DNA of 64,000 bases, from contig OZ246423.1 in the NCBI GenBank assembly GCA_965231215.1, positions 576,001 to 640,000 on the forward strand, given 5' to 3'. This document shows positions 55,977 through 64,000 of this stretch, one piece after another. Within the stretch, counting starts at the first letter, position 1. Every line of letters begins with the position of its first letter. Origin of the DNA: Candidatus Altimarinota bacterium. Its GTDB lineage: Bacteria; Patescibacteriota; Gracilibacteria; UBA4473. Below the pieces are notes generated by a model. The model was not told the origin of the DNA. It was given only the letters and a program-made list of their open reading frames with translations, and ran no database searches. The position numbers and the translations under genes are program-made.

Positions 55977-56012
55977 GCTTGTAATAACCCAAATTTTTAC
56001 TATACAAAGACC

Positions 56013-57092
56013 ATGTCTAAAGAACGCGTGGTCATTGGTTTGTCTGGCGGAGTTGATTCTTCAGTTTCGGCCAAACTTTTGGTAGATCAAGGCTATGAGG
56101 TCATTGGTGTTTTTATGAAAAACTGGGATGACAAAGATGAAGCCCACTGCCCAGCGGCCATAGACGCTGTTGATGCCCGACAGGTAGCCGAAAGTTTGGG
56201 GATTCGGTTTTATAGTTTTAACTTTGCTAAAGAATACTGGCGAGACGTATTTGATTATTTTTTGGAACAACACAAAAAATTTAGAACCCCTAATCCCGAT
56301 ATTCTGTGTAATAAGTATATTAAATTTAAAGTGTTTCTAGACGCGGCACAGAGTCTTGGCGCAGACAAAATAGCTACCGGGCACTATGCTAAAAATGTTT
56401 ATAACCAATCAACCAAACAATACGAACTCCAAGTCCCAAAAGACGGAAACAAAGATCAAACCTACTTCCTCTACACCCTCCAACAAGACTCGTTAGCCAA
56501 AACCCTTTTCCCACTGCAAGATTTAGACAAATCTGAAGTTCGGGCTCTCGCCAAAAAGTTTGGGTTTCACAACGCTGAAAAAAAGGATTCAACTGGGATT
56601 TGTTTTGTCGGGGAGCGAGACTACATGGAATTTCTCAAAAAATATCTTCACCAAAAACCGGGTAACATTGTGACCGAAAGCGGCCAAGTCTTGGGGCAGC
56701 ATATTGGACTGAGTTTCTATACCATAGGACAAAGAAAAAACCTCAATATTGGAGGCGTAAAAGGCGCTAAAGAAGCCCCTTGGTTTGTGCTATCGAAAGA
56801 CCTTAAAAAAAATGAAATTGTCGTGTGCCAAGATGACGATAACCCAAAACTTTTTGCATCAGAATTGATAGCTGAAAAACTCGACTGGGTTACCGGCACA
56901 CCACCTACAGAAAAAAAACTAACCGCCAAAATCCGATACCGACAAGACTTCCAAGACTGTAAAATGGAAGTAAAAAACGGCAAGGCCAAAGTGGCCTTTG
57001 ATAAACCACAAAGAGCCATTACTCCAGGACAGTCCATTGTATTCTATGACAAGGATAAGAAAGTTTGTTTAGGGGGAGGGGAAATTTGTTAA
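56013..57092 (+). CDS. mnmA: tRNA 2-thiouridine(34) synthase
   Basis: SGGVDSS, TPNPDILCN, ATGHY, KDQTYFL, KKDSTGICF. Confidence 0.98.
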   Translation: MSKERVVIGLSGGVDSSVSAKLLVDQGYEVIGVFMKNWDDKDEAHCPAAIDAVDARQVAESLGIRFYSFNFAKEYWRDVFDYFLEQHKKFRTPNPDILCNKYIKFKVFLDAAQSLGADKIATGHYAKNVYNQSTKQYELQVPKDGNKDQTYFLYTLQQDSLAKTLFPLQDLDKSEVRALAKKFGFHNAEKKDSTGICFVGERDYMEFLKKYLHQKPGNIVTESGQVLGQHIGLSFYTIGQRKNLNIGGVKGAKEAPWFVLSKDLKKNEIVVCQDDDNPKLFASELIAEKLDWVTGTPPTEKKLTAKIRYRQDFQDCKMEVKNGKAKVAFDKPQRAITPGQSIVFYDKDKKVCLGGGEIC

Positions 57093-57155
57093 CCAGGCTG
57101 AAGCTCTTCTGATTTCAAGTAAGGAAAAGCCATTTTCACTTATAATGATTATACA

Positions 57156-57180
57156 AAAAAGCCCTACTTCCGTAGGGCTC
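57156..57180 (-). terminator. Intrinsic terminator after glyA
   Basis: AGCCCTAC-ttcc-GTAGGGCT with an A tract on the + strand. Confidence 0.75.
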
Positions 57181-57200
57181 TAGTTGAATTTAAATTTTTC

Positions 57201-58478
57201 CTAAACAAAACTATCTGGAATTGGGAAGTCATGAGCTATTTGCCGAACTTCTTCCCGTATTTTTTCTTTTACGCCTGAATCATCTTTATTCCGCATAGCT
57301 TCAATCATAAGCTCAGCCACTCGTGCAGATTCTGCCTCTTTCAACCCACGAGTGGTAATAGCCGGCGTTCCAAATCGGATACCTGATGGATCAAACATAC
57401 TCCGCGGTTCATCAGCAATAGCGTTTTTATTCAGCGTAATGCCTACCTCGTCCAGTACGTCTTCCGCTTCTTGACCACTCACTCCAAGTGAACCAAAGAC
57501 ATCAGCCAAAAGTAAGTGGTTATCCGTTCCGCCTCCCATAAGCCTTACGCCTGCGTCTAGGAAAACCTTTTCCATAGCTTTGGCGTTTTTGAGGATCTGT
57601 TGACAGTGCTCTTTGAATTCTGGTTTGAGGGCTTCTCCAAAGGCAATCGCTCTTCCGGCAATAATATGCATATGTGGCCCTCCTTGCATTCCTGGGAAAA
57701 CCGATTTATCAATTTTTTTCGCAATTTCTGGATCTTCACGAGTCAGGATCATTCCTCCTCTCGGCCCTCGAAGCGTTTTGTGTGTCGTAGTCAGAATTAC
57801 ATCAAACCCATCATCAAATGGATTTCGCACGGCTCCTCCTGCAATAAGACCGGCAATATGTGCCATATCGGCTACAGCCAAAGCGCCAACTTCTCGAGCA
57901 ATCTCGACAAATTTAGCATAATCAAGTTCCCGAGAGTAGGCAGAAAATCCGGCCAAAATCATTTTGGGTTTTTCTTTCAATGCGACTTCTCGCATTGCTT
58001 CATAATCAATTTCTCCCGTGTCTGGATCTTTCATTTTGTACCGCACAAAGTTAAAAACTTTGGTAATATGTGTCACTGGGTGACCGTGCGTTAGGTGTCC
58101 TCCATGAGAAAGATCCATCCCCAGAATCGTATCCCCAGGTTCAAGTAGGGCAAAATAAGTAGCCAGGTTGGCCGGCGCTCCGGAATGAGGCTGCACGTTG
58201 GCAAACTTACAGTTAAAAAGTTTGCACGCTCGCTCAATACAGAGTTCTTCAAGTGGATCTGTAAAGTGTTGGCCTCCGTAGTAACGTTTACGAGGATAGC
58301 CTTCTGAATATTTATTGGTAAAGCAGCTTCCCATGGCCTCATGACAGGCTTTAGAAACATAATTTTCTGAGGGGATGAGCTCTAGACCGTTGGCTTCTCG
58401 ATCTTCTTCTCCACGAATAAGTTTGGCGATTGCTGCGTCTTGAGCTTCAATGTGTGGAATCGGTTGTGCAGTAGACAT
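57201..58478 (-). CDS. glyA: Serine hydroxymethyltransferase
   Basis: LELIPSENY, NKYSEGYP, HGGHLTHG, TTTHKTLRGPRGG, GTPAITTRG. Confidence 0.98.
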   Translation of the reverse strand: MSTAQPIPHIEAQDAAIAKLIRGEEDREANGLELIPSENYVSKACHEAMGSCFTNKYSEGYPRKRYYGGQHFTDPLEELCIERACKLFNCKFANVQPHSGAPANLATYFALLEPGDTILGMDLSHGGHLTHGHPVTHITKVFNFVRYKMKDPDTGEIDYEAMREVALKEKPKMILAGFSAYSRELDYAKFVEIAREVGALAVADMAHIAGLIAGGAVRNPFDDGFDVILTTTHKTLRGPRGGMILTREDPEIAKKIDKSVFPGMQGGPHMHIIAGRAIAFGEALKPEFKEHCQQILKNAKAMEKVFLDAGVRLMGGGTDNHLLLADVFGSLGVSGQEAEDVLDEVGITLNKNAIADEPRSMFDPSGIRFGTPAITTRGLKEAESARVAELMIEAMRNKDDSGVKEKIREEVRQIAHDFPIPDSFV

Positions 58479-58493
58479 AAGTTTTTGAAGTTT

Positions 58494-58527
58494 AAAAAAA
58501 TAAAAAATCGTCAGAACCTCCGACGAT
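58494..58527 (-). terminator. Leader terminator (attenuator) upstream of glyA
   Basis: ATCGTCGGA-ggt-TCTGACGAT followed by a long T tract. Confidence 0.75.
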
Positions 58528-58551
58528 AAAATTAAAGAGCAACTCCAAAAA

Positions 58552-58620
58552 CTAAACCTCTTTTCGACCTTTTCCAGAAGGTCTATTCGAGGTTAGATTT
58601 TTGGATGTTTTGTGGGTCAT
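58552..58620 (-). CDS. Putative leader peptide MTHKTSKNLTSNRPSGKGRKEV upstream of glyA
   Basis: 22-codon ORF ending AGA CCT TCT GGA AAA GGT CGA AAA GAG GTT TAG. Confidence 0.75.
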   Translation of the reverse strand: MTHKTSKNLTSNRPSGKGRKEV

Positions 58621-58630
58621 TTGTAGTCCG

Positions 58631-58659
58631 ATACTAAGCAAAACCCACATTCGATTCAA
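58631..58659 (-). promoter_or_regulatory. Promoter of the glyA leader
   Basis: TTGAAT-17 nt-TAGTAT, 10 nt before the leader ATG. Confidence 0.65.
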
Positions 58660-58675
58660 GATTTTTTTATGCTTT

Positions 58676-59362
58676 TTACAGAGACAAAAATAGAGCTTTG
58701 TTTTTCCCTAAGTCATAAGCGACTTTAGCAATTTCACATAATTTTTGATTGGTAAAAAAATGAGGCTGAAAAGCTTCAGCATCGATAATCCCGATAACCT
58801 TCCCCTCTTCATCAAAAATGGGGAGACAAAACTCGCTTTGAACCTGCACATCACAGGTGTAGTAAGGCCCTTCATATTGTTCGACACTTTGCACCACGAC
58901 CGCCTTACCAGAAAGCCCTACGGTAGAATTATTTGATCCCTTGGCAAACTCTGCATTTAGAGGAAACTCTCCTCGACTGAATCGACCATAATAAGCTTCT
59001 TTCAGCAAAATTGTCTCCCCTTCTAAATTCGTTGTCTTACGGTAAATACCAAGCCAATCAACGCCTGTAAGTTCTTGTAGGTGGGTTACAATTCGATTAA
59101 GCCTATAAAGCCTTAGCGTATTATCGTGTTTGGACAGATCAGCCTCTTCTAAACCAAGTGTTTTCTCCAAGCAATAAGGCTCTTGTGCCTTCAAACCGCA
59201 TCCTGCACCAGGAACAATCTCTGGGACAGAATAATGATAAAGTTGATTAATTTCTTCTTCAGAAAAATGCTCTACAGACTCCTGCAATGAGGTAGCAACA
59301 AACTTATTAAGGCTTTTTTTCACTGACAACTCTAAACCGATAGCCGATAGATAATGATCCAT
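58676..59362 (-). CDS. GAF-domain protein, free methionine-(R)-sulfoxide reductase (fRMsr/MsrC)-like
   Basis: VDWLGIY, YYTCD..VQSEFCLP, IGIIDAE. Confidence 0.7.
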   Translation of the reverse strand: MDHYLSAIGLELSVKKSLNKFVATSLQESVEHFSEEEINQLYHYSVPEIVPGAGCGLKAQEPYCLEKTLGLEEADLSKHDNTLRLYRLNRIVTHLQELTGVDWLGIYRKTTNLEGETILLKEAYYGRFSRGEFPLNAEFAKGSNNSTVGLSGKAVVVQSVEQYEGPYYTCDVQVQSEFCLPIFDEEGKVIGIIDAEAFQPHFFTNQKLCEIAKVAYDLGKNKALFLSL

Positions 59363-59368
59363 AATTTA

Positions 59369-60508
59369 TTAAGTTATTTGAGATAATATTTTTTGAGAAA
59401 ACTCTCCCTGGAATAAATTCACCCCATCCCTTGGAGTAATCGCTATCCCATTGTAAAAAATTCTTCCATTCCCAATTAATAAGGGAGAAAAGCTTTCATT
59501 AGTATTCACTGGATCTTGGGGAACCCGGCCTCCATTAACATTAAAAATAGGAATGGTCTTTGGTTTATAGCCGGTCGCCTGAATAATTACATCCGCCGCA
59601 TCTAGAACTTCTGAAATTTCTTCAACCTCACCGCCATAACCCAAGAATCTACTGTCTTCATCTTCTCCCGATTCTATTTTCTCATATCGGTCTTTTGCGT
59701 CCCCCCTTACTCCCTCAAACCTATGCACTTTTCCAGCATCAACATCTTCTTGTTTGTAGGCATAACTTGCATTTTCTGCTGCCGCTTCACTTGAATAATA
59801 CAATTTAAAGCCATTTCGATGACAAAGCGTAATAGGATCCAAAACTCCCGCAGCTCGGATATTATCAATACAAGAGAAGGCACTATGAGCCCCTCCAATG
59901 ACCACAATATTTTTGCCTTCAGCTCTCTCTCGAATTTCTTCATCGGAAAGACGTAAAAAATCATCAGAAAATACACGTTTATGGTCATTTTCTCCCAAGT
60001 TTAAAGGTTCTTGCTCGGCGCCAATCGAAAGAATCACATTTTTAGACACTACTATAGGCTCTCCGTCTGAGTCATAGGATACAACCTCTCCATCTTTATT
60101 AATTCGAAGGGAGCTAGCCTGAGCATCAATGATTGGGCTATTAGAATTCTGTGAAGACTTAAGAATCCCGGACAAAGCCCTCCCCACCTCAGCCTCAAAC
60201 CGTGCTATCGTTTTCAAGCAAATGATATCACCCCCTGTTTTACGAATTTCAGTGAGAAGATTACTTTTCCCCTCTAACTGATCTAAAACTGCTGCAGGAA
60301 CGGTTTCCAAAAAATCTGAAGCTGCAGAATTAGACCGAATTGAGTAACTTAATTTTCCCGATCCAAGATTTCTTTCAGGGCCAATCAATGCCAATCCTTT
60401 CTCCAATAGGGCCTCATACGAGAATCCGCCTTGCGATAAAGCTTTTAAAGGAATTCCTATGCCCGATGGACCGTTGCCGATTATCTGTGTTTCAAGTCTA
60501 TCTACCAT
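59369..60508 (-). CDS. FAD/NAD(P)-dependent oxidoreductase
   Basis: IIGNGPSG FAD motif, VVIGGAHSA second Rossmann motif, IQATGY. Confidence 0.75.
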   Translation of the reverse strand: MVDRLETQIIGNGPSGIGIPLKALSQGGFSYEALLEKGLALIGPERNLGSGKLSYSIRSNSAASDFLETVPAAVLDQLEGKSNLLTEIRKTGGDIICLKTIARFEAEVGRALSGILKSSQNSNSPIIDAQASSLRINKDGEVVSYDSDGEPIVVSKNVILSIGAEQEPLNLGENDHKRVFSDDFLRLSDEEIRERAEGKNIVVIGGAHSAFSCIDNIRAAGVLDPITLCHRNGFKLYYSSEAAAENASYAYKQEDVDAGKVHRFEGVRGDAKDRYEKIESGEDEDSRFLGYGGEVEEISEVLDAADVIIQATGYKPKTIPIFNVNGGRVPQDPVNTNESFSPLLIGNGRIFYNGIAITPRDGVNLFQGEFSQKILSQIT

Positions 60509-60579
60509 TTTAAAAAAAATTAAATAAAGAAATACCGCCCGAGTAGCCGGGGAAAACCTAGATCGTATTGATTAATTCC

Positions 60580-60660
60580 TTAACAACGTAGGTTCACCGC
60601 GACCACCGAAACGCTCATTTCGGTCATCATGTACATCATCAATTCTCGTAAGCTAAACAT
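60580..60660 (-). CDS. Met-rich leader peptide MFSLRELMMYMMTEMSVSVVAVNLRC
   Basis: ORF starts immediately after the methyltransferase stop (TAG-ATG); five internal Met codons; overlapping alternative hairpins. Confidence 0.7.
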   Translation of the reverse strand: MFSLRELMMYMMTEMSVSVVAVNLRC

Positions 60661-61281
60661 CTAAACTTTTGGGGTTAAACGAAAATATTGAGCTTCAGCT
60701 ATATCTGTTCCTGACACATTAACCGGCTTACGAACATAAGCTCGACCAATTCGTTCTACTCTATAACGATCGGTCACATAAGGCCGTGTCACCGTGCTGG
60801 CTGCATAAGAAATATCTTTCACATACAACGCCACCAATTCTTGCGCCGTCAGCGCCTCAATAACCCGACGTTGAATCGCACTGCCATCAACCCCACAGGC
60901 TGCAATATTTGGATTCTGTGGGAGGTTGGCCACAACCGTCCGCCCCTCTGCTCCCCACACATTATCGAGACTAAATTGACATTTCCCCCCTAAATTATTT
61001 GCAGTGGCATTATCTCGAGCAACACTCAATGAGGTTTTACACTTATCGGTGAGCAACACATTCTGCACTTGATCCTTAGTTGCCAACAGCAACCCTATGC
61101 ACCCCTTTCCACAACCAATATCTGCCATGTATGTAGACGGCCGAATCAATCCGTTTTGAATCAAATGCAATGCAGCCCTTCCAACATTTGAACGCTCGTG
61201 CACTCCAGGCAAGCTATGAAGTTCAAGCCCTAAATTTGGATCTGGTATATCTGGATAAATAGTAAGTGTGTCTAAAGGCAT
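60661..61281 (-). CDS. Class I SAM-dependent methyltransferase
   Basis: ADIGCGKGCIG, LLTD, ARDNA, VVANLPQ (NPP-like); start at ATG 61281 because the longer ORF runs through the terminator. Confidence 0.85.
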   Translation of the reverse strand: MPLDTLTIYPDIPDPNLGLELHSLPGVHERSNVGRAALHLIQNGLIRPSTYMADIGCGKGCIGLLLATKDQVQNVLLTDKCKTSLSVARDNATANNLGGKCQFSLDNVWGAEGRTVVANLPQNPNIAACGVDGSAIQRRVIEALTAQELVALYVKDISYAASTVTRPYVTDRYRVERIGRAYVRKPVNVSGTDIAEAQYFRLTPKV

Positions 61282-61298
61282 AAGGTAAAAATTTACAT

Positions 61299-61325
61299 AA
61301 AAAAACCCGCCGAAGTAGGCGGGTT
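61299..61325 (-). terminator. Attenuator terminator upstream of the methyltransferase
   Basis: AACCCGCC-tacttc-GGCGGGTT-TTTTT. Confidence 0.85.
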
Positions 61326-61351
61326 GGTACTTAGTTTCTTTTAATTTCTCA

Positions 61352-61408
61352 CTATGCACTAATCCGACCACTTCTCTTCAGAGAAGTCATCATCATAGTC
61401 ATAGCCAT
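61352..61408 (-). CDS. Met-rich leader peptide MAMTMMMTSLKRSGRISA
   Basis: ATG GCT ATG ACT ATG ATG ATG ACT...GCA TAG between a promoter and a terminator. Confidence 0.8.
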   Translation of the reverse strand: MAMTMMMTSLKRSGRISA

Positions 61409-61429
61409 GCTTAAATTTTGCACGGATTC

Positions 61430-61458
61430 AAAGTAATCTGAGTTTCCTTTTATGTCAA
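61430..61458 (-). promoter_or_regulatory. Promoter of the Met leader
   Basis: TTGACA-17 nt-TACTTT. Confidence 0.65.
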
Positions 61459-61477
61459 ATTTATTAAAATAAAAACA

Positions 61478-62080
61478 ATGTCAAAGCGCGTTAGAACCCA
61501 CACCAACCCACTCTCAATTCTGAAAGAAATCCATTTTGAGGGATTTGGTAATGACAAACCTCTATTTGTAGATGTAGGCGCTTTCAAGGGAGAATTTATG
61601 GATGAACTATCTACAAAATTTCCAGATCACAATTATATCTGTTTTGAACTCCGAACCCCTATAGCCAATGCCCTAAAAGAAAAATTCAAAGACCGAGATA
61701 ACTTTGTAGTCTTCGATGGGGATGCGGGAAGAAACTTTCGAAATATCGTAGAACCCTGTATCGCACAAGGCGCTAAAATCCAAAACATTTTTGTAAACTT
61801 TCCAGACCCTTGGTTCAAAGATAAACACAAAAAGCGGAGATTCATCACCGTTAAGTTTTTGAACGAAGTCGCCAAATGGCTCCCCAAAGAAACAGCCTTT
61901 ATTTTTCAAACAGATCAAAAATTTGTTTTTGATGAAACCCTCGAATATCTAGAAGAAACGCCCTATACCAATATTGAGTATTTTGAAGATTCCGCCTACG
62001 AAATCCCAACCGATTGGGAAAAAGTAAAATTAGCTCAAGGGGATCAAATTTGGAGAATGAAATTTTCTCAAAAAGCCTAA
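61478..62080 (+). CDS. trmB: tRNA (guanine-N7)-methyltransferase
   Basis: RVRTHTNP, VDVGAFKG, VNFPDPWFKDKHKKRR, QTD, PTDWE. Confidence 0.9.
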   Translation: MSKRVRTHTNPLSILKEIHFEGFGNDKPLFVDVGAFKGEFMDELSTKFPDHNYICFELRTPIANALKEKFKDRDNFVVFDGDAGRNFRNIVEPCIAQGAKIQNIFVNFPDPWFKDKHKKRRFITVKFLNEVAKWLPKETAFIFQTDQKFVFDETLEYLEETPYTNIEYFEDSAYEIPTDWEKVKLAQGDQIWRMKFSQKA

Positions 62081-62475
62081 CGCAACATCGGCAAACTTCC
62101 TACTAGTGAATTAACCGTCTTGGTTTCTCCCATGACTCCAACCCCAAGAACCGTAAGGTCTTTAAGTTTTTTACCTTTCACAGATTCAGCGTATTCTTCA
62201 TAGCTGGTAGTACATTGAGCTTCTTTGGTAAAAGGAATAAGTTTTAGTCCTAGTTCCTGAGCCTTGTAGCACAAAGATTCTAAAGAGACCTCTTTGGGTT
62301 TAAGAATAAGGATAGGAATCTTGGTGATAGGCAAAAACTCAACATCAGCTCCCTCAATTTTAGGTCCCACTAGTTCAGACTCTCCTGAAAAAATTCCAGA
62401 GCTAATACAGGCCACAGCATTGGCCAAAAACCCAGTTGGCAAAGAGGTATCGAGAACGATGGCAGATTTTTTCAT
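62077..62475 (-). CDS. DUF2000-family protein (PTH2-like fold)
   Basis: AIVLD..LP.G..ANA, PILIL, AQ.T.SYEEY, G....VN.L.GSLP.LR. Confidence 0.75.
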   Translation of the reverse strand: MKKSAIVLDTSLPTGFLANAVACISSGIFSGESELVGPKIEGADVEFLPITKIPILILKPKEVSLESLCYKAQELGLKLIPFTKEAQCTTSYEEYAESVKGKKLKDLTVLGVGVMGETKTVNSLVGSLPMLR

Positions 62476-62543
62476 TTTAATTTGTTAAAAAATTAACAGA
62501 CATGTTATAATTAGTACAAATGTTATAACCCGTCATAAATCTG

Positions 62544-63161
62544 ATGTCAAAAAATATTTCAACACTACTCCAAAAATACCCACTCATTACAACCTATGCC
62601 AACGCTGGGTTAGTGAACCTCAATGCCTTGGCCAGACTAATTCAACCAAATACTAAAAGCGTTTCCATTGAAGCCCTGGGGATGGAGCTCAGACGATATC
62701 TAGCAAAACAGGAAAAAACTAATATCCCAAAAGCTGACTTTTCGTCCTACGATTTAGAGGTGGTAAGTCGTAGCAACATAAAAGAACTTATCTTTGATAA
62801 AACTATTACAAACCGAAAATACTGCTTGAAACTAGCCACTGAGCTCCTAGAAAGTAAACACTTTTTTTCTCTGGTAGAGGGAGAAAAAGAAATAACCATT
62901 ATCACTGATGCTGATGGTAAAATTGTGGAGAGGTCAAAACCAGCCAATTTGCACCAAACTGAAAAGTTAGGTTTTATTTCTATAAACTTTCCTTTTGAAC
63001 TTAGGGCCAAACCTGGAATATACAGTGTACTGACATCTGCCTTAGCCGAGGAACACATTTCTATCCAGTCTTTCCATACTATAGGGGGAGAAATTATCAT
63101 CCTCGTTCACGAACAAGACCTCATCAAAACCCAAGAAATCTTTCAGTCTTTTTTCAATTAA
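62544..63161 (+). CDS. ACT-domain protein, paralog of 13876-14520
   Basis: GLVNLNALARLI, ALGMELRR, PGIYSVLTSALAEEHISI. Confidence 0.75.
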   Translation: MSKNISTLLQKYPLITTYANAGLVNLNALARLIQPNTKSVSIEALGMELRRYLAKQEKTNIPKADFSSYDLEVVSRSNIKELIFDKTITNRKYCLKLATELLESKHFFSLVEGEKEITIITDADGKIVERSKPANLHQTEKLGFISINFPFELRAKPGIYSVLTSALAEEHISIQSFHTIGGEIIILVHEQDLIKTQEIFQSFFN

Positions 63162-63192
63162 CAAAAAAGGGCGAAGAAAATTCACCCTTTTC
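63162..63192. terminator. Bidirectional terminator
   Basis: AAAAGGGCGAA-gaaaa-TTCACCCTTTT between convergent genes. Confidence 0.65.
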
Positions 63193-63211
63193 CCTAACAT
63201 TTACTTTTAAG

Positions 63212-64000
63212 CTATCGAGCTACTCCTTCAAAACGAGAATCCCTGATTACCACTACTTTCACCTGTCCAGGATACTGACAGTTTTGTTCTACCTTCGTGG
63301 CGATATCAATAGCGAGTTTTTCAGAGTCTAGATCGTTTACTTCTGCCGCATCTACAAAGACTCGAACTTCTCTCCCAGCTTGGATGGCAAATACTTTTTC
63401 AACGCCTTCAAAAGAACCAGCAATAGCTTCAAGTTCTTTAAGTCGCTTAATGTATTTATCCAGTGTCTCACGTCTCGCTCCAGGCCGAGAAGCTGAAATG
63501 GCATCAGCCGCTTGCAACACACGGGCTTCTAAAGATTCATACGGGAAGTCTTCATGATGTGATTTCATCGCTACAATTACAGGTTCTTCAATCCCAAATT
63601 TCTGCAAAATTTCCATCCCAATGACAGCATGTCCTCCTTCTACTTCATGCGAAACGGCTTTCCCGATATCGTGAAGGAGTCCGGCTTTTTTGAGCATTTC
63701 ACTATCGGCTCCAGGAAGGTAGTTGGCAATCCCTTCGGCAAGATAGGCTACTTCAATAGAGTGCTGTAATACATTCTGTCCGTAAGAAGACCGAAATCTA
63801 AGCTTACCAGTAAGTTTCAAAATTGGATCTGGAAGCCCCGTAACTCCAAGGTCATATGCTGCTTTCTGGCCCAGCTCAATAAGTAGCTTGTCTGCTTTTT
63901 GTTCTGCTTTTTCTACGGCTTCTTCAATTTTAGAAGGGTGAATCCGTCCATCCTTAATCAGGTTTTCTAAAGCAATTTTAGCAATAAATCTTCGGAAAGT
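63212..64000 (-). CDS. rny: Ribonuclease Y (5' end outside window)
   Basis: DGRIHP, RSSYGQNVLQHS, LLHDIGK, AADAISASRPGAR, AIQAGREVRV. Confidence 0.96.
   Translation of the reverse strand, partial: TFRRFIAKIALENLIKDGRIHPSKIEEAVEKAEQKADKLLIELGQKAAYDLGVTGLPDPILKLTGKLRFRSSYGQNVLQHSIEVAYLAEGIANYLPGADSEMLKKAGLLHDIGKAVSHEVEGGHAVIGMEILQKFGIEEPVIVAMKSHHEDFPYESLEARVLQAADAISASRPGARRETLDKYIKRLKELEAIAGSFEGVEKVFAIQAGREVRVFVDAAEVNDLDSEKLAIDIATKVEQNCQYPGQVKVVVIRDSRFEGVAR

Follow-up and report, generated by a model that had tools for sequence, protein, structure and literature searches.

Does this bacterium sense its methionine supply through a run of AUG codons? The question is raised by the minus strand of a divergent intergenic region in the window, that is, the whole stretch of 64,000 nucleotides (nt) analysed here (contig OZ246423.1, positions 576,001 to 640,000). 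The window belongs to the complete, single-contig 1.33 Mb genome of a Candidatus Altimarinota bacterium, coded G000; the other genomes are coded G001 and so on. Between trmB on the plus strand and the gene of a 206-residue methyltransferase on the minus strand lies a leader at 61458-61299, in which a short open reading frame (ORF) with five AUGs in seven codons is followed by an intrinsic terminator. This leader (the Met leader) is very probably a ribosome-mediated transcription attenuator that senses methionine via the supply of charged elongator tRNA-Met. An attenuator had already been proposed from the letters of the window (the sequence-only reading), and that proposal is supported by the conservation of the AUG run, the covariation of the antiterminator and the methionine genes downstream. 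These observations, together with the sequence elements themselves, are described below.

All parts of an attenuator are found in this region: a leader ORF, a cluster of control codons, a terminator, an antiterminator exclusive with it, and region 1 and the stop codon in the corresponding places. The sequence-only reading had listed a TTGACA/TACTTT promoter, a 1:2 protector over the Met codons, a 2:3 antiterminator with 14 of 17 positions paired, and a 3:4 terminator with a T tract. Each of these was found again at the positions collected in the Table, and the recount of the antiterminator gave the same number. The five AUGs in seven codons also stand, while the start of the leader likely lies 15 nt further upstream, at a GTG. 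From ATG 61408, the ORF has 18 codons, of which codons 1, 3, 5, 6, and 7 encode Met. The in-frame GTG (61423-61421), 6 nt past the -10 hexamer, aligns with the ATG start of most relatives; therefore, the leader probably comprises 23 codons and encodes MQNLSMAMTMMMTSLKRSGRISA, so that every one of the five control AUGs would be internal. The 6-nt distance between this start and the -10 hexamer suggests an mRNA that is leaderless or nearly so. The leaders of relatives carry a TTGAC(A/G/T) hexamer at the position corresponding to the -35 hexamer of the window, and TAAAGT, TACATT, or TAAGAT at the place of the -10 hexamer.

The 1:2 hairpin, in which 10 of 11 positions pair and one is a G.G mismatch, reaches into the last control codons and is present in the minimum free energy (MFE) structure, which lengthens the helix outward. 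The 2:3 antiterminator occupies six of the eight bases of the terminator 5' arm. Region 2 ends at 61356, 2 nt ahead of the leader stop codon. The terminator stem has eight pairs, six of them G-C, and a 6-nt loop; as trmB is divergent, this terminator ends no upstream gene. The MFE of the 141-nt leader is -45.6 kcal/mol (z = -5.49), and none of 200 shuffles was as stable.

This arrangement would work as follows. Transcription would start a few bases before the leader ORF, giving a leaderless or nearly leaderless mRNA. When Met-tRNA is plentiful, the ribosome would pass the five AUGs, reach the UAG, and cover region 2; region 3 would then pair with region 4, and the terminator would halt RNA polymerase before the methyltransferase gene. 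When no ribosome is loaded, the 1:2 and 3:4 hairpins would form, and transcription would be terminated as well. When Met-tRNA is scarce, the ribosome would stall on the AUG run (61402-61388), masking region 1. Region 2 would pair with region 3 as it emerges, no terminator would form, and the polymerase would read through into the genes of the methyltransferase, a flavoprotein, and a GAF protein resembling free methionine-(R)-sulfoxide reductase (fRMsr). A second, weaker Met leader might re-check the signal ahead of the flavoprotein-GAF pair. The transcription start, the translation of the leader, the stalling, and the response to methionine are the predicted steps of this model. Of the sequencing runs listed, three from one study, none is recorded as RNA.

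Homologous leaders were searched for with covariance models. Model R1, built from only two sequences (the leaders of the window and of G003), was applied to 150 related genomes. The 25 matches that were read comprised 14 Met-run leaders in 12 genomes, one Trp-run leader (G036), and ten false matches, mostly coding DNA with GAT repeats. Every one of the four other members of the genus is among these 12 genomes. Model R2, for which 12 of these leaders were used, was applied to two sets of 151 genomes, one from the class and one from the phylum. The class gave 23 new matches, 18 of them Met-run leaders and five false or doubtful. The phylum gave 13 matches outside G000, of which 12 lay in other classes. 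Met-run leaders made up four of these 13 matches and belonged to three genomes of other classes. Including those found from the side of the HTS genes described below, Met leaders are present in about 40 genomes, from 12 families of the class and three families of other classes; these genomes are samples and mutually related, and the counts are not independent events. The G+C fraction of the matched stretches ranges from 0.30 to 0.58. Such a search, for Met-rich upstream ORFs with terminators, had been proposed in the sequence-only reading, which had also named a lack of conservation of the Met run in homologous leaders as the observation that would speak against it; two to seven in-frame AUGs are present across these genomes. 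In G003, a member of the genus, trmB and a divergent leader encoding MKNLLMAMPMMMLLQKGSRISV are followed by the methyltransferase gene and then glyA. The terminator of this leader shows a compensatory change from C-G to A-T, and its antiterminator is better than that of the window.

The way in which the run varies suggests that the AUGs are read as codons. Every accepted leader has a start upstream of the run and a stop close to region 2 (the 5' strand of the antiterminator), and both are in frame with the AUGs. Most relatives have an ATG about 15 nt upstream of the run. The number of AUGs differs from leader to leader, and the intervening and following residues are free to vary (MAMTMMM, MAMPMMM, MAMAMMM, and MMMLMMM are examples). 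The sole gap in the coding part of the closest pair is one of 3 nt. In an alignment of 14 leaders, four columns are invariant and 12 nearly invariant, most of them within the T run or the AUG codons. The leader of G036 has three TGG codons at precisely the alignment position of the ATG run. This Trp leader (G036:C6:246625-246743; L024 1501-1619, minus strand) has the same scaffold; it is followed by an 80-residue ORF without known function, a terminator, and a short ORF that also precedes glyA in the window.

Leaders of the same build with other codons are present in G000 itself. A Leu-run leader, MKNFSLLLLLTLEIRAV, lies ahead of leuA (G000:C1:1119218-1119271, minus strand), and a Thr-run leader, MQNTTNTTTAKAG, lies ahead of thrS, the threonyl-tRNA synthetase gene (G000:C1:655326-655367, plus strand). 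In each case a promoter lies about 10 nt upstream of the start codon and an intrinsic terminator is present; by this layout, the two are classical attenuators built like the Met leader. A codon-agnostic scan of the whole genome, for short ORFs with at least four identical residues in seven codons and a terminator, gave 105 matches, only two of which were Met. The second Met match ("MEMM") was rejected, as it is the wrong frame of the 3' end of a gene, and a His-like match (G000 664467) without a close downstream gene was dropped. In another class, G270 has a short ORF with three consecutive Ile codons and a terminator (G270:C26:24462-24555; L102), about 230 nt upstream of a gene whose product has an N-terminus that looks, by eye, like that of a class II aminoacyl-tRNA synthetase. 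This ORF may be another attenuator of the design.

The switch was examined by folding 13 Met leaders in three states: unconstrained, with a ribosome at the stop codon, and stalled, the ribosome footprint covering the AUG run in an RNA that ends before region 4. In most of them, the unconstrained MFE structure has, besides the terminator, a hairpin that covers the AUG run or directly follows it. With the ribosome at the stop codon, the terminator alone remains. In the stalled state, with the footprint masked, 5-12 bases of the terminator 5' arm are sequestered in 12 of the 13 leaders. The stalled-state fold energy is below that of at least 297 of 300 shuffles in nine of the 13; the first leader of the window is beaten by one shuffle in 300, and the second by two.

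The antiterminator helix is also maintained across genomes. Its 15 pairs, counted on alignments fitted to the models, are formed in 87.1% of the cells with 12 rows and in 86.4% with 39 rows (one row probably being a false match on the reverse strand). In the controls, shuffles gave 56% and 50% paired cells, and slid partners 38-50%. Changes on both sides of a pair occupy 200 cells, as compared with 70 expected, and none of 500 shuffles reaches the observed covariation score. RNAalifold on a plain MAFFT alignment recovers only the terminator, in which five of six pairs show changes on both sides; for this reason, the 1:2 helix was not counted across genomes.

These results bear on the idea that the leader is an RNA switch that binds a metabolite or a protein (SAM (S-adenosylmethionine), methionine, or a related compound), in which the AUGs are structural and are not read. 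Such an element might be expected from the terminator/antiterminator architecture, which is common to many riboswitches, from a short GGTCG-type motif that recurs in region 2, and from the usual control of methionine genes by SAM riboswitches. However, the motif is one strand of the co-varying antiterminator, the few invariant or nearly invariant columns of the 14-leader alignment leave no conserved pocket, every accepted leader frames its variable number of AUGs with a start and a stop, and the same build carries Leu, Thr, or Trp codons elsewhere. The best match in an Rfam scan of the leader was Trp_leader (RF00513; 61297-61398), with 27.8 bits (E 0.022) against a gathering score of 41; the leader resembles this family in shape and is not a member of it. 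A covariance match to a SAM riboswitch or a T-box was not obtained in 56000-64000 at E values up to 10. The only SAM-I riboswitch match in G000 (G000:C1:541930-542020, minus strand; 56.9 bits) sits upstream of metK instead. An RNA switch is thus a very unlikely explanation.

The short ORF might also act through its peptide. TnaC and plant CGS1 are arrest peptides that stall with a small molecule, and a nascent Met-rich chain could act as such a sensor; alternatively, the peptide itself could be the product. The Met run is the only conserved feature of the peptide, and a C-terminal KGSRIS is conserved within the genus. Between lineages, however, the C-terminal parts are wholly different, and the conservation within the genus coincides with an RNA pairing strand. 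Stalling by methionine or SAM would, moreover, have the wrong sign, inducing biosynthesis or salvage when the product is abundant. Genes for modification or export, which typically accompany peptide products, were not seen at the locus. An arrest peptide or a peptide product therefore appears highly improbable, and the reading of codons by a ribosome is preferred.

The genes behind the leaders, identified by Pfam and PDB searches, are predicted to be related to methionine wherever they are recognisable. HTS (homoserine O-acyltransferase) follows Met leaders in G001, G002, G033, G140, G168, and G095, among others, and is a later gene of the leader operon in G004. The Cys/Met pyridoxal phosphate enzyme family Cys_Met_Meta_PP follows in G072 and G140, and S-methyl_trans (homocysteine S-methyltransferase) in G170, G089, G098, and G118. 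Methionyl-tRNA synthetase is encoded by the third gene after the leader of G091. The pair of flavoprotein and fRMsr-type GAF genes stands under Met leaders in G000, G002, G004, G009, and G140, and the methyltransferase gene in G000 and G003. Genes in G026, G050, and G243 gave weak, sub-threshold SAM_HAT matches, and the remaining ones belong to families without a Pfam match.

To avoid the circularity of searches with leader models, a test was made from the side of the genes. HTS is carried by 15 of the 151 class genomes. A strict scan of the 1.5 kb upstream, for at least four Met in nine codons and a terminator, was positive for seven of the 15 on the sense strand and for none on the antisense strand. 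Six more loci have, by eye, short MM/MMM leaders with terminators (five genomes of one family, f16) or an M.M.M leader (G095). With G004, in which HTS is the third gene of the leader operon, 14 of the 15 HTS genes have a Met leader; only the copy of G009 is without one. Rfam at the gathering threshold gave no riboswitch at the nine of the 15 HTS loci that were scanned.

AUG is also the start codon, and the run might act via initiation, its members serving as alternative starts that tune ribosome loading and sense initiator tRNA or its formylation, that is, one-carbon status. Each AUG of the run does open the same frame, the mRNA appears nearly leaderless, and the operon adjoins glyA in the genus. 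In most relatives, however, the leader ORF has a conserved start apart from the run, about 15 nt ahead of it, and leaders of the same build with Leu, Thr, or Trp codons cannot work in this way. The leaders of other lineages stand ahead of metA, metY-like, homocysteine methyltransferase, and metG genes, and glyA is not near them in the stretches read. Control through initiation has accordingly little to recommend it. A chance combination of an ordinary terminator or structured intergenic region with an accidental short ORF is barely credible: AT-rich intergenic DNA is rich in short ORFs and most of the 105 matches of the crude scan of G000 were spurious, but this terminator ends no upstream gene, conservation and covariation extend across about 40 genomes, and the HTS test gave seven positives in sense against none in antisense.

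The attenuator reading has its own difficulties, and the following points weigh against it. A shortage of methionine should also lower the charging of initiator tRNA and thereby the translation of the leader, which favours termination. The likely GTG start on a near-leaderless mRNA is an inefficient start in many bacteria, and the leader ORF of the window has no Shine-Dalgarno sequence. The promoter site was not called in the promoter scan, because the weak -10 hexamer agrees with the consensus at only three of six positions. The AUG runs among the R1 and R2 matches are partly circular, as the models contain the run, and the fitting of the alignments to the models favours the antiterminator counts. 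With 39 rows, 78 of 500 shuffles reach 15 pairs with changes on both sides. The number of sequestered arm bases is no better than in shuffles (66 of 300 reach the value of the window), and the leader of G091, the exception among the 13, is outside the geometry. Several downstream genes belong to no known family, and a SAM-using methyltransferase as the first gene has no evident role in methionine shortage. Finally, when region 1 is masked in the full-length RNA, the terminator is still the MFE structure in the window leader and seven other Met leaders, and the antiterminator is the MFE structure in only five of the 13. Since the terminator still wins at equilibrium, the switch must depend on the order of folding during transcription; the classical model of attenuation has the same dependence.

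The operon of the window matches the methionine association only in part, through its fRMsr-like GAF protein; the methyltransferase and the flavoprotein are unplaced. The sequence-only reading had put a SAM methyltransferase downstream of the leader. The family assignment holds, as the first structural gene appears to encode a class I SAM-dependent methyltransferase of the MTS type, whose tie to methionine is putative. Its start is ATG 61281 and not the GTG given in the ORF list. A word-index search found only four homologues among 5.8 billion proteins. The syntenic copy in G003 is 35% identical, and the best PDB match is MJ0882 (E 4.4e-5). A search for related loci with the methyltransferase alignment gave one unrelated match, 27% identical, in genome contigs and none in metagenome contigs.

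The second, internal Met leader, which the sequence-only reading had overlooked, scores 38.9 bits (E 4.8e-6) with model R2. Its ORF (60660-60580), encoding MFSLRELMMYMMTEMSVSVVAVNLRC, has 26 codons with six Met, and its ATG abuts the stop codon of the methyltransferase gene. A strong antiterminator-type helix is followed by a weak terminator (60551-60538) with an interrupted T run. The region alone is not significantly structured as compared with shuffles (z = -0.36). Homologues lie after the first leader in G001 and between HTS and the flavoprotein gene in G002, and G140 has an analogous leader ahead of its flavoprotein gene.

For the flavoprotein, the word-index search gave one relative and the PDB sequence search none, and the clusters matched in the protein atlas were all generic FAD/NAD(P)-binding ones. 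Its AlphaFold2 model, from an alignment of five rows, was too poor for fold comparison (mean predicted local distance difference test score 49; predicted template modelling score 0.40). The best PDB match of the GAF protein is yeast YKL069W (1f5m; E 6.5e-6), across the Cys-Asp active-site stretch, and the counterpart in G002 matches fRMsr structures at E 1e-29 to 1e-35. The 228-residue protein is thus classed by similarity as a divergent relative of fRMsr. The relatives that have the flavoprotein gene all have it paired with the GAF gene, and in the five genomes that carry the two side by side, a Met leader precedes the pair each time. This suggests that the two form a functional pair, in which the flavoprotein possibly serves the sulfoxide reductase as its reductase. 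G004 has, directly ahead of the flavoprotein gene and without a methyltransferase gene, a leader almost identical to the first one of the window (132.7 and 135.7 bits, respectively, with R1). The flavoprotein-GAF module thus has its own Met leader in every case, and the layout of the window is probably one of several module shufflings in the genus.

Table. Positions of the leader elements and the surrounding genes in the window
Feature	Position	Strand	Basis or remark
trmB	61478-62080	plus	Pfam Methyltransf_4 and TIGR00091
-35 hexamer, TTGACA	61458-61453	minus	sequence reading
-10 hexamer, TACTTT	61435-61430	minus	sequence reading; 17-nt spacer from -35
Leader ORF	61423 (GTG, likely start) or 61408 (ATG) to TAG 61354-61352	minus	sequence and alignment
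Control AUG codons	61408-61406, 61402-61400, 61396-61388	minus	
1:2 hairpin	61391-61381 with 61376-61366, loop 61380-61377	minus	MFE structure
2:3 antiterminator	61372-61356 with 61330-61314	minus	14 of 17 pairs including G-U, recounted
3:4 intrinsic terminator	stem 61325-61304, T run to 61299	minus	terminator scan and fold
Methyltransferase gene	60661-61281	minus	206 residues; Pfam PF05175, E 1.2e-10
Second, internal Met leader region	60513-60660	minus	covariance model R2
Flavoprotein gene	59369-60508	minus	379 residues; FAD/NAD(P)-binding, Pyr_redox_2-like
GAF protein gene	58676-59362	minus	228 residues; Pfam GAF
Terminator 3' of the operon, or of a separate glyA short ORF	58507-58527	minus	terminator scan

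The operon terminator is followed by glyA. Directly upstream of glyA, a short ORF (58550-58618, minus strand) ending in RP.GKGRKE(V/I)-stop is associated with the terminator at 58507-58527. Its nucleotides are conserved in three genomes of the family, G000, G003 (L002 2083-2151), and G036 (L051), and it had no Rfam match. It may be a separate leader, arrest peptide, or RNA element for glyA.

Among the genes without a Pfam match, a family of 325-367 residues is the first gene after Met leaders in five families of the class (L049 7104-8081, L063 453-1478, L075 1635-2735, L059 494-1480, and L067 940-1434). Its members match one another in BLASTP with E 1e-8 to 4e-60, and the family is a candidate for a methionine-related function. 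A relation between this family (A8) and the weak SAM_HAT-like group (A9) was rejected, as the profile comparison gave a probability of 0.6 and E 0.091. The protein atlas gave no usable lead for a 342-residue protein of G099. G013 and G155 have a second pair of related first genes without a Pfam match.

The remaining content of G000 gives the leader a possible physiological setting. HTS, Cys_Met_Meta_PP, S-methyl_trans, and Meth_synt_2 were not found in family searches of this genome, and therefore a salvage operon under methionine control makes sense. The organism is probably a methionine auxotroph, in which the attenuator would serve the salvage genes and the riboswitch SAM synthesis. As the SAM-I riboswitch stands only ahead of metK, SAM and Met-tRNA would be sensed by different devices; in other words, one genome can divide control between a riboswitch on metK and a sensor of tRNA charging on salvage genes. 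No T-box was found in G000, and three of its tRNA genes have the anticodon CAU. Ribosomal protein uL30 (PF00327), whose absence is typical of the candidate phyla radiation, was not found in G000 and is present in 13 of 14 control genomes.

Beyond this locus, it is likely that AUG-run leaders on nearly leaderless mRNAs form an undescribed class of ribosome-mediated attenuators, reading the charging of Met-tRNA, and are the main regulator of methionine supply in a class of small-genome bacteria. Their genes would be metA, metY/metB-type, homocysteine methyltransferase, metG, and fRMsr, often with tandem or intra-operon leaders, and they would be used alongside a SAM riboswitch on metK. If this is true, the regulon would provide a way into the methionine metabolism of small-genome bacteria that are little known and mostly uncultivated, and it would mark the MTS-type methyltransferase, the flavoprotein, and the family of 325-367 residues as new methionine-salvage functions.

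Attenuation by leader peptides is the textbook case of the coupling of translation and transcription, and methionine has been absent from the amino acids sensed by it. A plausible reason lies in the second role of AUG as the start codon and in the effect that a methionine shortage has on initiation as well. Met-codon attenuators that form a conserved family with covarying structure ahead of methionine genes would, if real, fill this gap. They would also show how the problem of initiation is tolerated, possibly by a separate upstream start on a leaderless mRNA.

The classical leader-peptide attenuators are those of trp, his, leu, thr, pheA, and ilv of enterobacteria. The Met leader shares with them a short leader ORF in which codons for the regulating amino acid form a run, the alternative 1:2, 2:3, and 3:4 hairpins with a terminator before the first structural gene, and a stop codon placed so that a ribosome there covers region 2. 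Methionine specificity is, to our knowledge, not among the textbook cases. The Met leader differs in that its control codon AUG is also the start codon, it belongs to no Rfam family, and its mRNA is apparently leaderless or nearly so, without a Shine-Dalgarno sequence. It also differs in that the operon of the window holds a second, internal attenuator, and in that it occurs in a lineage of small-genome bacteria in which uL30 was not found. SAM-I riboswitches (RF00162) and Met T-boxes likewise control methionine genes by termination and antitermination in the 5' leader, but they sense SAM or uncharged tRNA directly by RNA, without translation, and do not match the leader.

The sequence-only reading had called a Met-codon attenuator rare or undescribed. 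In the full-text literature outside subscription journals, no described example was found except "metL" upstream of metNIQ of Streptomyces lividans TK24, which the accessible part of that report presents as a proposed methionine-dependent leader peptide on a leaderless transcript (PMC8079986). The judgement is thus borne out as far as these sources go. Like the Met leader, "metL" would be a methionine-dependent leader ahead of a methionine gene cluster. Its peptide has 29 residues with only two internal Met, interleaved with three Cys, and the leader lacks, according to the authors, a typical Rho-independent terminator (PMC8079986). The Met-leader family, in contrast, has two to seven AUGs, clear terminators and antiterminators, and wide conservation; "metL", as far as that part of the report describes it, is a weak and unvalidated precedent. 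For Actinobacteria, the portion consulted of another study records that methionine operons showed no RNA regulatory structure (PMC1262725).

The mycobacterial polycysteine short ORFs, in the accessible part of their description, are leaderless cysteine-responsive attenuators (10.1101/834739). They resemble the Met leader as leaderless first cistrons in which codons for a sulfur amino acid come in runs, and in the control of downstream operon genes, and they differ in having Cys instead of Met codons and in belonging to another phylum. By its sequence features, the Met leader is best described as the known mechanism of leader-peptide attenuation with a new specificity, for methionine, that is widespread in one bacterial class.

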